From assembly GCA_951406725.2 (NCBI GenBank), contig OX597826.1, positions 10,478,001 through 10,542,000 on the forward strand: 64,000 nt of DNA. Reading direction: 5' to 3'. Position 1 is the first letter of the stretch; each line of letters opens with the position of its first letter. Below, one piece after another: positions 16,272 to 58,853 of the stretch. This DNA is from Octopus vulgaris (lineage: Eukaryota). Under the pieces are notes generated by a model that did no database searches, had not been told where the DNA came from, and worked only from the letters and a program-made list of their open reading frames with translations. A program made the translations under genes and the position numbers.

Positions 16272-16359
16272 TTTTAGCTGATGAGTACGGGACACGTTTA
16301 TATTGTATTTTTGCAACTTTTAATAAAACCTGTCCTTGTATGAAACGATTGTACTAAAA
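16272..16359 (+). ncRNA. Minimal type-I hammerhead ribozyme motif with long stem II
   Basis: Stem I TTTTAG/CTAAAA, core CTGATGA, stem II GTACGGGACA...TGTCCTTGTAT, then GAAA-C-GATT-G-TA. Predicted cleavage after 16353. Confidence 0.7.
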
Positions 16360-28415: not shown

Positions 28416-29235
28416 CAAAATGGGACAAGAACGCAAAACATCCAGAAGATGATACAAAAAACGCGGACGGGTCATTCGAAGCCTTTAATCTTCAGTCAAG
28501 AACCAGATCATCCTCGCAATTTCGGCTGATTAATCTTGAGATTGCTCCAATCTGGCCAAGGAAAAACTAAGCTAAGAGCATTAGATTCCTTGGAATCTAT
28601 ATATATATATATCAATGGATGAATGAATTACCCTATGTTTACCGTTAACATGGAAAATTCAATAAACTGCTACCAGGGTAGCAAAATTCACGTCAGAAAC
28701 ATGGTTGAAGCGACCTATCCAAAGGTAGAAACTCCGGGTTAATGTGCAGTAATTTGTGTGTTATAAATGAATAAATAGATAGTTAGATTGGTTCATACTG
28801 TCCGTATCCTTTCCTTTCGATAAGGGCAAGAGATTTTGTAACATTTGCAACTCTGAACTCTTCCATATTCTCTTCTCTAAGAATCCCCTTGTTAACACAC
28901 TTATAGAGCGATCGTACAAATGTAAACTCTGGCAGAAACATACATTTTACTCATACAAGTGATTTCGCCAGTCATTATAGTTTGAACAGTTAGTTTAACT
29001 TGCCCTTTACTTCAATAGAGAAGTCTATTTCTAAGCGTTTGAACATTTTTTCAACCAACGTATCCCTCTCTATTTGTTCTCTACTTATTATTCCTTTAAC
29101 CCTTCTCTTCCTACAATCTGCCTTTCATGTCGAATCTACTAACGGTTTTTTAAAAATACTTAATAACGTTCTGTTTATCATTTAGGCAGTCATCGTATTT
29201 GTTATAATGTCTTGTTGTTGAGAGAGGCTCGCTTT

Positions 29236-29317
29236 CTTTCCTGATGAGAAGATTGCATTTTACACCGTTTATTTCTTTGGAATAAAACCATGTTGTCTTC
29301 GAAACATATGTCGAAAG
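29236..29317 (+). ncRNA. Canonical minimal type-I hammerhead ribozyme, copy 1
   Basis: CTTTC-CTGATGA-GAAGATTGCAT...ATGTTGTCTTC-GAAA-C-ATAT-G-TC|GAAAG. Intact core, G-C closing pair of stem II, palindromic CATATG, GUC site with cut predicted after 29312. Confidence 0.85.
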
Positions 29318-29413
29318 TAAAAGAATTTTATTAACATCTTAGTTCAACTTCATTTATTTATTTATTCATATATATATATATATATATATGTGCGTGTGTG
29401 TGTGTGTACATAT

Positions 29414-29444
<31 letters not shown>

Positions 29445-29509
29445 CCTAGGGCTGTGGTAAGAAGATTGCTTCTCAACCACATGGTTTCAGGTTGAGAGAG
29501 GCTCTCTTT

Positions 29510-29591
29510 CTTTCCTGATGAGAAGATTGCATTTTACACCGTTTATTTCTTTGGAATAAAACCATGTTGTCTTCGAAACATATGTCGAAAG
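29510..29591 (+). ncRNA. Canonical minimal type-I hammerhead ribozyme, copy 2
   Basis: Identical to 29236-29317; cut predicted after 29586. Confidence 0.85.
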
Positions 29592-29638
29592 TAAAAGAAT
29601 TTTATTAACATCTTAGTTCAACTTCATTTATTTATTTA

Positions 29639-29687
<49 letters not shown>

Positions 29688-29972
29688 ACATATTACATAT
29701 ATATATATATATATATATCCTAGGGCTGTGGTAAGAAGATTGCTTCTCAACCACATGGTTTCAGGTTCAGTCCCACTGCATGGCATCTTAGGCAAGTGTC
29801 TACTGCTATAGCTCCAGACTGACCAAAACTCTGTGAGTGGATTTGGTAGATGGAAATTGAAAGAAACCCTTTATATCTATCTACCTGTCTGTCTGTCTGT
29901 CTGTCTATCTATTTGTCTGTCTGTGTGACTATCTATCTATTTATCTATATATGTGCCTGTCTGTATGCATGT

Positions 29973-30392
29973 GTTAAGTTAATTTTTTGGCTCAAAAAGC
30001 AAAAAGCAAGGCCATGTAGGGGGACATAGAGTTATGTACAGGGAGGGTGTTCATGCAAAGAGTTCAGGCCATTTCTGGTCAATAGAGACTTTGAACCGAG
30101 CAGTCATCGGCATCTTCACCATCTTGTCTGGCAGCTTATTCCACGGATCCGCAACCCGAACGGAGAAAGCCACTCTCCTTCGATTGAGATGAAATCGTCG
30201 CAGATAGAGCTTTTTGGAGTGACCCCACAGCCGACGCTCTGGAGCAGGAGTGAAGAACAGCCCTTTCGAGAGGTTACACTTTCCGCTTAAGATGTTGTGA
30301 GCAAGAATGAGGTCACTACGGCGGCGGCGTTTTTCTAGAGAATAAAGGTCGAGCATCTTCAGCCTTTCTTCATAAGACAAATGCTTGAGACC
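29973..30392 (-). mobile_element. 5'-truncated CR1-clade LINE (ORF2 C-terminus 30051-30380 plus 3' UTR)
   Basis: LSYEERLKMLDLYSLEKRRRRSDLI...GHSKKL...FSVRVADPWNKLP matches the CR1/L2-group ORF2 end. Confidence 0.85.
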
Positions 30393-30859
30393 AAGGTGCC
30401 ATGCACTGGGACTGAACCCAGAATCATATAGTTGGGAAGCAAACTTCTTACCATACCTCCATGTCAGTGTCTATTATTTAATTGGTTATAATTGTTTTGA
30501 TCCCTGTTTGTCTTCAGGTACAGCCATAAATACTTATTTATCGCCCAGTTAACATAAATCTTTGTAGAATGTCACCGCCAAGTATTAATTATCAGTTCGT
30601 TATCACTCATATATGTTAAGTAATCTCATATTATAATTATGCTCAGTAATAAATAAGAAATTGAAATTGAAAAATATTTCATATCAAACATTGGTTGCTA
30701 TACAAAATTAATTGTATTGGCTTTATAAATGAGTTACACACCCACATGCACACACATATATACACACACACACATATAATGTTAGGCCTAATTTACATAA
30801 ATCTATTTAGCAAGTCACCACTGGCTATTAAGCGGGTCATAAATAATAAATCTATACTG

Positions 30860-47184: not shown

Positions 47185-48417
47185 TTGGGTCATAAACAAT
47201 CAGTTTTTTTTAAATTGCATGAACTAAATGTTGGAGGGGGACCGGGTAAACTACCTGCATCAACTTGTTATAATGCAGGTAGTAATTTTACTTTGTACTT
47301 ATTCTTAGTGCAAGTTTTGAAGAGTGCAGTTCGATTTAAACAGTTATTTTTTCAAAGCTATAATGGAAGTGGCAAAGGAGCATATTCAGAATATTTTGCT
47401 TTATGAGTTCGATAAAGGCAACAACGCAACGGAAACTGCGAGGAATATTAATGCAGTACATGGGAATCGGACAATAAGCATAAGCCATTGTCAATGGTGG
47501 TTCCAGAAATTTCGAGCCAGAAACTGCAGCCTAGAAGACAAGCCTCATCCCAGAAGATCTGTAGAGCTTGACAAGGACATCCTGCAAACCCTGGTGGAAC
47601 AAAATCCCATTGTAACTGTTGCGGAACTAGCAGAGAAGCTTGGATTTGGTCATTCAACCATTCATCGACACTTGCATGCCATTGGAAAAGTCAGCAAATT
47701 GGGTCAATGGGTTCCTGACAAACTTCCCGAGATTAATCATGCACAGAGAGTGAATTTGTGCTCTTCTTTGCTGTCAGGTCTCACAAATGAACCTTTTTTG
47801 GACTAAATAGTGATTAGTGACAAGAAATGGGTTCTTTATAAAAATGTCAGGTGCTGAAGACAGTGGGTAGGGAAAGGAGAAACACCAGCACCCCAGGCTA
47901 AAGAAAGTCTTCACCCTGTAAAGTTTTGTTATCTGTTTGGTAGGATATGAAATGTTTAGTCCACTTAGAACTTTTAAACCCAAACCAAATGATAACAAAG
48001 GAGATCTACTGTGAGCCAACTTGAGTAGCTTAAGTCAGTGCTAGAAGAAAAATGACAATCTTTCATTTCCAGATGAAAAAGTGTTCTATCAGGATAATGC
48101 TTGGCCACATACAGCAAGGATGACATTCCAAGGGCTGGAGTTGTCCCATCTTAATTATCATTTATTCTGCGGTCTTCAAGATCATTTGGATGGAAAAAAT
48201 AGGAATTCTGTAGACAAGGTCAGAACAGTACTGGAAGAGTATTTTTCATCACAGATAAGTGAATTTTGGAAGAGGGGCTTTGCAAGTCTACCAGATAGAT
48301 GGAAGAGCATTGTAGAAAATGAAGGAGAGTATATTTTAGATTAAAAAGAACTTTATTTATCTTAATTTTGAAAACTAAAAGAAGTATAAAAAATGCATTA
48401 TTTATGAGATAACCCAA
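47185..48417 (+). mobile_element. Full-length decayed mariner DNA transposon (~1.23 kb)
   Basis: TIRs TTGGGT-----CATAAACAAT / ATTATTTATGAGATAACCCAA. TA on the right flank and CA (mutated TA) on the left. Confidence 0.9.
47363..48344 (+). pseudogene. Mariner transposase pseudogene (Hsmar1/Mos1-like)
   Basis: MEVAKEHIQNILLYEFDKG..WFQKF..SLED..WVP..L, (T)DEKW-like SDKKW, QDNAWPH, YHLF, LPDRWKSIVENEGEY. Contains in-frame stops, frameshifts and deletions. Confidence 0.92.
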
Positions 48418-57114: not shown

Positions 57115-58853
57115 TTATGTATTAAAAAAAATTTTTTTTTTTATTGCTGAGCCCATACCAATATTTCACTAACAAACTCTCTTTCTCTGATTTTAATATA
57201 AACATTCATGAAATAAACTGTTTTTGAGAGAGAATATTTTAAACAAGAAAACAAAACACCATTTAACCATTTATTAGTGTGAAAATGGTGAATACTCTAT
57301 TTGTCATAAAATAAATTTATATTAAATCTTTTTAAAGTTCACGTCATCTCATGAAACCCCAGAATATTTTTACAGAACTCTGGGAGTTCCTTGCTATCCA
57401 CTTTTGGAAACACCTGATTATTCCTCTCCTCCAAATTTAAAACCTTATGCTTGTGTTTGTGGCACCATTTATTCTTCTATTTTTTTATACATTTCAGCCC
57501 ATGCTGGGGCTATTTGAATGCTTTCAAATGGAGTTAGGCTTCTGTCCGCAAAATCCTAGTTCATAACCTTTTCACTTCAATTTTTTTTTCTTATTCTTTG
57601 ATGAAGCATTTCCGTTTCAATTCTCATTTTCCTTATTTTCTTTTTCTTTTTTGTTTTTCCTTTTTTCTTTTCTTGCTTTTCCGAAATGCTTGACTCCATG
57701 TCCCCTAGGACAAGACCACAGGAAAATATTATATTATAGTCTATCTCTTACATTACACCAGAATCATAGAAACCTCTGTCAGGAAAGACTAATGCTTTGT
57801 TTCAATTTCTTCTTAGGTTATGACTGGGGAAAAACACCCAGGGACGCCTGCTGCATGGAAACATAATAGTAAAATGGGCACTAGCATACTTGAAATAGTA
57901 AGCCAAGAAATTTTAATTAACTATATTACTCTCTTAGTGATGAGATGACCTCCTGCTTGTTGACACCTCCCTTTCTTCCTTCCTTCTTTCCTTCCTTCCT
58001 TCCTTCCTTCCTTCTTTCCTTCCTTCCTTCTTTCCTTCCTTCCTTCCTTTGTTTTTCCCTTTTTTTATATTTCTTAATTAATCCAACAGTGATCAGTAGG
58101 AGCCAACTGTTATTCTGGCCACACACACAAACAATTTAACATTGCACGTTAACGATACGCTCGTTAGTTCATACTGCTGCCACTGCTTACATTAATTGCA
58201 TGTGCATGTTGTTCCCATTGTAGTTGAAATAATGAGCCGGAAAAAGAATTTTTAATCAATTGAAATTATACTGAAGATGGTACTTTGGTATGGCCTTGAT
58301 TGCAATGGTTTAAAGAATTTAAAAAAAAAAACATCCTCATCAGATGAAAAATCATTACCTTTTATGATAATTCTTATCAAGAATGGCAAGGAAGAAAAAT
58401 CTGAAATTTAAACTGTTTAAAAATTTAATGAAAATGTGCAGCAAAGAGTGGTGAATCTATTCTTTAGTAGATTTCAGTCTTATGAAATCTCCTCAGTGAA
58501 ACAGTTCTAACACATATCTACTAGACTTTAGAATGACTTTGAGAGGATATATCTAGTCTTTTGTATGAGATAATTATCTTGCTTGCAGGCATACTATAGT
58601 GCTAGTGACATGATAATCTCTGCCAACTTTTCAGTTGGTTGTACAATACTATTTATCCTCCCCATATATGTTCACTGTTAACTGATTAAAGAACGGCAGA
58701 AAAACTAAATGAATAAAAAATAACTATATTTCTGTAGAGTTTCATTATTTGATGCCATCAATAATCAAGTGTATTCCACTTTTTCAGTTAATTTCTCTAG
58801 AATTGGTAAGATATAATTGCAACCAAAAAAACCACTAGAAGTTCCTGGAATAA

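Follow-up and report, generated by a model that had tools for sequence, protein, structure and literature searches.

The tandem hammerhead pair described here, found in a 64,000-nt stretch of the Octopus vulgaris genome (the window), is best explained as debris of a Penelope-like element (PLE) that was doubled once, locally. We hold with modest confidence that this debris is passively transcribed, is cut slowly and mainly at its downstream site, releases little of a 274-nt RNA, and likely has no selected function. It most likely resembles the first step of a retrozyme, not an established circular-RNA element.

TRF places a two-copy tandem at 29217-29767, with a period of 274, 2.0 copies, and 93% matches. 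When both strands of the window were scanned for the motif and its stems, type I hammerhead cores emerged at 29237-29316 and 29511-29590, with predicted GUC cleavage after 29312 in copy 1 and after 29586 in copy 2. These results confirm the tandem hammerheads, spacing, and cleavage sites that a first-pass annotation of this DNA had reported. Each ribozyme comprises stem I (CUUUC/GAAAG), CUGAUGA, a long stem II closed by GAAGA/UCUUC, GAAA, and then GUC, and its 2-bp stem III sits within the palindrome ACAUAUGU. Both copies thus contain CUGANGA, GAAA, UH, and stems I to III of the type I core. The hammerheads had been called identical and canonical. The ribozymes are letter-identical over the ranges in Table 1, but the repeat units are not: they differ by one substitution (G29231 versus T29505) in approximately 200 non-microsatellite nt, and their microsatellites have been remodelled. 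The core is likewise canonical, but the geometry is PLE-type (5-bp stem I and long stem II) and Rfam gave no hammerhead match. There were 0 Rfam matches at the gathering score across the window, and the 33 sub-threshold matches obtained up to E 5 in 29100-29950 were nearly all to microsatellite, with hammerhead and tRNA absent. The predicted monomer carries the (TA)/(TG) tract and the box-A part of a SINE head, as had been claimed, and the head is cut where its box-B-like motif starts; the box-A-like and box-B-like motifs are named by resemblance to a consensus. On the sense strand, stem II of each hammerhead also contains AATAAA (29281 and 29555), and the duplication thereby doubles a possible intronic polyadenylation signal.

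Table 1. Features of the tandem, its parent element, and the probable host gene (positions within the window)
Feature	Position	Strand	Remark
Inverted PLE 3' tail with flanking (TA)n	28595..28781	-	BLAST to family loci
PLE GIY-YIG endonuclease C-terminal remnant, WFILSVSFPFDKGKRFCNICNSELFHILFSKNPLVNTLIERSYKCKLWQKHTFYSYK	28781..28962	+	Translation
PLE 3' untranslated/terminal repeat region, ending ...TTTATTCAT at (TA)n target	28963..29366	+	91-96% identity, 39 other places scored
Duplicated unit 1 (274 nt): PLE end, microsatellite, SINE head	29217..29490	+	
Type I hammerhead 1	29232..29322	+	Predicted cleavage after C29312
Predicted 274-nt product if both sites cut	29313..29586	+	29% GC; 69% paired as circle
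(TA)n(TG)n(TA)n microsatellite, PLE target site	29367..29444	.	Predicted long AU/GU hairpin
Truncated SINE head	29445..29493	+	Box-A-like motif kept; box-B-like motif broken at GTT junction 29491-29493
Duplicated unit 2, continuing into full SINE	29491..29767	+	
Type I hammerhead 2	29506..29596	+	Predicted cleavage after C29586
Full-length SINE copy	29719..29868	+	Best other copy 89% identical
HMBOX1-like coding exon (V-MTGEKHPG...SILEI)	57817..57897	+	Acceptor before, donor after

Judged by its sequence, the ribozyme is the 3' end of a 5'-truncated, inverted, Hydra-like PLE. The first-pass annotation had missed that the hammerhead is the 3'-terminal motif of an element with several hundred copies. 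An exact core pattern found at least 489 intact-core copies genome-wide and a reversed control pattern found 0; a stricter core pattern gave 382 exact matches. Since the control is empty against 489 matches and stem II covaries, the hammerhead is not a chance motif. Across 7 distinct rows drawn from related families, 4 of 6 stem II pairs have two-sided changes; this covariation points to selection on the parent elements and not at the tandem locus. The 129 nt around the ribozyme occur at many genomic places with 95 to 98% identity. Family copies terminate in (TA)n tracts, often with an inverted, truncated partner, and 5' inversion is typical for PLE insertions. By BLAST, the stretch at 28595-28781 comes after the hammerhead end in forward copies (e.g., L008, L036, and L038). 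Upstream of the hammerhead, family copies have an AT-rich 3' region, then the open reading frame (ORF) end SIY...YIG...CNICNSE...N...CKH, and then reverse transcriptase (RT) remnants; the endonuclease frame of the window extends upstream in longer copies to the same SIY...YIG and RT remnants. GTT was considered as the element boundary and rejected, since family copies continue upstream of it.

The family has the architecture of an EN+ PLE. By motif reading, RT is followed by a C-terminal GIY-YIG domain in L055 and L056 (FDVLMGS, GGLYRND, SIY...YIG), and copies show 5' truncation with an inverted copy, a terminal tail, and a hammerhead in the terminal repeat. The RT motifs RWK and DKT were not seen in 10 long loci, all of which are 5'-truncated or broken, and Pfam, applied to 4 PLE fragments, assigned none of the 4 to a matching family and gave unrelated sub-threshold matches at most. 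The Hydra clade is described as having a C-terminal endonuclease, CxxC plus CxH without CCHH, (TA)n targeting, and a hammerhead (PMC8557442). Read by eye, FCNICNSE...LVN...KCKH supplies CxxC plus CxH around the conserved E and N; the family also lacks CCHH, targets (TA)n, and carries a hammerhead. Unlike the Hydra clade, the octopus family lacks the CxCX5C linker before the endonuclease: it was not found in L055-L058, which have a poly-Asn microsatellite there instead. Because this linker is missing and Pfam gives no support, the family is called Hydra-like and not Hydra. The Naiad clade was rejected, as its endonuclease is N-terminal and it carries no canonical hammerhead. The in-frame (AAT/AAC)n microsatellite in the PLE ORF yields a poly-Asn run of variable length directly before the endonuclease (L055:5341-6186 and L057:5647-6501).

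The pair itself reads as a single-locus duplication made after PLE insertion, with no dispersed retrozyme family. Compared with 28 family loci, the two copies have three variants in common (29274, 29341, and 29350), the last of which is present in 1 of the 28, and G29231 is confined to copy 1. The duplication joined the SINE head to the PLE at a shared GTT, and this SINE-to-PLE junction was found once in the 2.8-Gb genome (up to 3 mismatches), the other match being SINE-like. It is because both copies carry the three private variants and the junction is unique that we place a single duplication after the insertion. The junction and the shared variants also bear out the earlier suggestion of a GTT-microhomology duplication made after the SINE had inserted. 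The duplication broke 95 nt short of the cleavage site instead of at it, a position easier to reconcile with a DNA-level event than with an RNA monomer. The SINE is 89% identical to its best relative, versus 96 to 98% for the PLE, so the likely order is SINE, PLE, and then duplication. With the order thus taken from divergence, an old SINE would have stood behind a (TA)n tract into which a Hydra-like PLE inserted, 5'-truncated and inverted. The PLE copy would have gained its three private substitutions before a DNA-level duplication at the GTT microhomology copied the PLE end, microsatellite, and SINE head. A single substitution and slippage in the microsatellites would have come afterwards.

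Close intact hammerhead pairs recur elsewhere in the genome, which the first-pass annotation had also missed. A genome-wide exact-match search with gaps of 30 to 500 nt gave at least 8 pattern matches for close same-strand pairs. Two intact ribozymes are present in 3 of the 8, at spacings of 274 (window), 353 (L111), and 550 nt (L112), and in one further pair the first copy is damaged. L111 (also L051; G000:C9:34263745-34264044, minus strand) is a 353-nt PLE-only tandem that belongs to a sister subfamily; its two hammerheads are intact and identical to each other, and it is a cleaner retrozyme-like candidate than the window tandem. L112 (G000:C9:92155786-92156283, minus strand) is apparently a second local duplication: the 550-nt tandem there comprises the PLE end, tail, and microsatellite, and both of its cores are intact. 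The chimeric unit of the window was absent from all other close pairs.

The tandem probably lies, in sense orientation, within the approximately 160-kb first intron of an HMBOX1-like gene. HNF-1_N and homeodomain exons are found downstream on the plus strand, and the host protein is 98 to 100% identical to octopus records named "homeobox-containing protein 1-like." The coding exon at 57817 matches O. sinensis and O. bimaculoides isoforms at 100%, and three O. bimaculoides isoforms start with MTAK ahead of it. A match to the MTAK exon, ATGACAGCGAAG followed by the donor GTGAG, lies on the plus strand 160 kb upstream of exon 57817 (L088:7553-7569). It is preceded by the motif AACATGGCGG, which we take to be a promoter-proximal YY1-type motif, and the island in which it falls is the only one rich in CpG among 361 windows of four kb across 364 kb (o/e 0.94-1.06; median 0.39). 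The MTAK-plus-donor pattern has 19 matches in the genome, of which 11 are on C28 in a repeat; these matches to the 17-mer were dismissed as an unrelated repeat (5 of 11 examined). That repeat (L103-L107; G000:C28) is GC-rich, near-identical at 11 places on one small chromosome, and shares the 17-mer with the host first exon by coincidence. No MTAK exon was found inside the window or within 50 kb upstream of it, and a phase-1 version is absent from C13. The intron assignment, for which the evidence is this 4-codon match and the CpG island, would leave 132 kb between the donor and the tandem and a further 28 kb between the tandem and the acceptor. Since the tandem is on the sense strand of this probable intron, plus-strand transcription is likely, in line with the plus-strand transcript and host pre-mRNA that had been envisaged.

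Pol III drive from the SINE head was considered and rejected, an intact SINE being present downstream. The head cannot plausibly drive the unit because the junction interrupts its box B and the tandem contains four T4 runs (29258, 29326, 29532, and 29600). Base skew marked no transcription start, and no other genes were found inside the intron among 140 of 193 and 150 of 342 ORFs (21 of them scanned with Pfam), a survey whose reach excludes short exons. The same probable intron holds a solo type I hammerhead of another family in sense orientation (16274-16357, plus strand; predicted GUA site after 16353; palindromic, ACGAUUGU-like stem III), with a relative at L100:6179-6334 on the minus strand. 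A complete solo sense hammerhead already residing in this intron suggests tolerance. Five more hammerhead-like motifs from other PLE families lie within 250 kb upstream of the window (L092, L090, L094, L085, and L091). The window also contains what we take, from their motifs, to be a LINE ORF 3' remnant (30054-30470, minus strand; no Pfam match) and a decayed mariner-like transposase (47321-48341, plus strand).

Folding models allow the double hammerhead in cis, as had been proposed, as a nested fold in which the microsatellite at 29367-29444 is predicted to form a long AU/GU hairpin that shortens the inter-ribozyme loop. The modelled probability of the 8-bp inter-copy stem III fell from 0.96 in a 424-nt context to 0.24 at 601 nt and 0.009 at 911 nt. 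The cost of the active fold over the ensemble (ViennaRNA, 37°C) was +8.8 kcal/mol for the solo ribozyme, whereas in the dimer it was +4.8 to +7.3 kcal/mol for the 29586 site and +7.7 to +11.2 kcal/mol for the 29312 site. The site order was unchanged at 18°C in short contexts, and in the longest context monomeric copy 1 cost only +6.1 kcal/mol. The modelled 29312 site was not helped, even after the downstream cut; it competes with a hairpin that its 3' strand forms with the AU-rich tail and with base pairs between the SINE head and CCUG in copy 2. For the natural PLE-only pair L111, the costs were +4.5 and +6.9 kcal/mol. All of these costs are overestimates, since ViennaRNA ignores tertiary stabilization; being computed without tertiary contacts and lying near those of L111, they rank the sites and give no rates. 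Given this similarity to L111, the model provides no reason to rank the window pair below a natural pair in its downstream cut. The gain that the model predicts from duplication falls on 29586 and hardly on 29312, one of the two sites of the proposed active unit. In the model, the upstream cut, which is needed for release of the 274-nt RNA, gains almost nothing.

In the account that we prefer, Pol II passage would allow the two palindromes to pair as an 8-bp stem III, cutting the folding cost of the 29586 site, and the 29312 site would stay blocked by competing hairpins, one of which involves the SINE head taken in by the duplication. Splicing would probably tolerate a slow cut 28 kb ahead of the next exon; it is reported to have survived an intronic hammerhead cut but not a fast HDV cut (PMC2995048). 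Counting against this account, both cores are perfect and the family keeps a 2-bp stem III of the well-cleaving kind. Hammerheads with a 2-bp stem III and a tetraloop are reported to cleave as monomers, at 0.8 per min in coral and 0.1 per min in mussel, and axolotl hammerheads to cleave better as dimers (PMC7229834). The premise of a silent solo hammerhead, from which the first-pass annotation had started, is thus unproven. It is unlikely, in our judgment, that the pair acts as an efficient double hammerhead in HMBOX1-like pre-mRNA, with both sites cut, a 274-nt RNA that RtcB could circularize, and lowered output from the allele. The perfect cores, the high stem III probability in the minimal dimer context, and the sense, probably intronic position 28 kb before the acceptor would suit such activity, as would a unit length within the 170- to 400-nt retrozyme range. 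Local amplification of a PLE terminus is, moreover, the proposed route to retrozymes (bioRxiv 10.64898/2026.07.22.740005), and the intronic CPEB3 ribozyme is reported to modulate its own mRNA (PMC10919898). Against it, stem III pairing collapses in the longer contexts, the upstream site is unaided in the model, and the locus is single with no sign of conservation. PLE hammerhead dimers are described as having low activity (PMC4209133), and 8 of 9 tested dimers in Xenopus, where approximately 43% of copies are intronic, were uncleaved, with 1 of 9 cleaved (bioRxiv 10.64898/2026.07.22.740005). Birth of a retrozyme in intron 1 of the HMBOX1-like gene, with a working cis dimer, a chimeric 274-nt circle made by Pol II, and less mRNA from the duplicated allele, is decidedly unlikely; if it were true, one-copy alleles would be a natural control and the event could be dated.

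There is little chance that the tandem is an assembly or polishing artefact, such as two alleles placed head to tail. The difference between the copies is allele-like (1 in approximately 200 nt, plus microsatellite lengths), and none of the 32 listed pieces, out of 3,585 that contigs of four runs gave when aligned to the 164-nt stretch around the junction, bridges it. Both repeat families are deep in these pieces, cover from RNA runs is not locus specific, and the runs need not carry the duplicated allele; 20 of 24 listed public runs contain part of 28900-30100, none reaching half its words. The junction itself is clean, with 3-nt microhomology, as real small duplications show, and L112 is a similar 550-nt tandem that contains a microsatellite. 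It is hardly probable that the tandem is real but that the transcription unit of this species begins downstream of it, leaving it as inert DNA with no plus-strand transcript. The O. vulgaris model P0001 does begin 42 kb downstream of the tandem and 0.7 kb before a large coding exon, and O. sinensis models begin at MTGEK with their 5' exon unlocated. However, the start of P0001 falls in a minisatellite with many similar copies (L069:7339-7389), and the model is probably mispredicted at its 5' end; exon 57817 has an acceptor, which means that something lies upstream, and the MTAK exon with its donor sits in the only CpG island of the 364 kb. Membership in a mobile non-LTR retrozyme family spread via circular RNA is extremely improbable. 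The tandem passes the screen of the 2026 preprint, being a TRF tandem with two complete type I motifs (bioRxiv 10.64898/2026.07.22.740005). Its junction is nevertheless unique in 2.8 Gb, which leaves the link to established retrozymes drawn in the first-pass annotation unsupported, and the flanks run into ordinary PLE and SINE bodies with no target-site duplication around the array.

If the tandem cuts, the proposed step from PLE terminus to retrozyme could be tested at a single locus, where one ribozyme is available in both solo and dimer form, and a neutral duplication would be seen to place an RNA break in a transcription factor intron. If it does not cut, it would explain the over-calling of retrozymes by tandem-hammerhead screens in PLE-rich genomes. 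In open-licence literature, searched by title and abstract opening, we found no description of octopus hammerheads. Like the PLE pseudo-LTR hammerheads, the octopus ribozymes are of type I, combine a short stem I with a long stem II and a palindromic stem III, and form the 3' terminus of a GIY-YIG element that targets (TA)n and occurs mostly as solo or inverted copies (PMC4209133; Hydra, PMC8557442). The pseudo-LTR hammerheads are thought to act as dimers with low activity (PMC4209133). Unlike those systems, the octopus pair comes from a later DNA duplication that includes host microsatellite and SINE. A PLE-type origin would be the element's own partial tandem, which L111 appears to be and the window pair does not.

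Metazoan non-LTR retrozymes are described as low-GC tandems of type I hammerheads 170 to 400 nt apart, with a PLE-terminal origin and a predicted self-paired monomer (PMC7229834; bioRxiv 10.64898/2026.07.22.740005). The octopus tandem is like them in these respects, and each of its units carries a complete type I hammerhead. Retrozymes occur in hundreds to thousands of copies, whereas the octopus tandem is one locus with two copies, known from sequence, and not a dispersed multicopy unit. Its unit also differs in being chimeric, with about one-third of its pairing coming from the microsatellite hairpin. The CPEB3 ribozyme offers a second parallel, since it too is a self-cleaving motif (predicted, in octopus) that lies in sense orientation within a long intron, where cleavage competes with the progress of the polymerase to the next exon. 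CPEB3, however, has an HDV-like fold, is conserved in mammals, and has been tested, and it is reported to tune its own mRNA (PMC10919898), whereas the octopus motif, left behind by a transposon, is young and shows no sign of being conserved. If it cuts, the tandem would act like a retrozyme dimer, yet it lacks the dispersal of a retrozyme family. It is ordinary in origin and somewhat more interesting through its probable location in a transcription factor intron.
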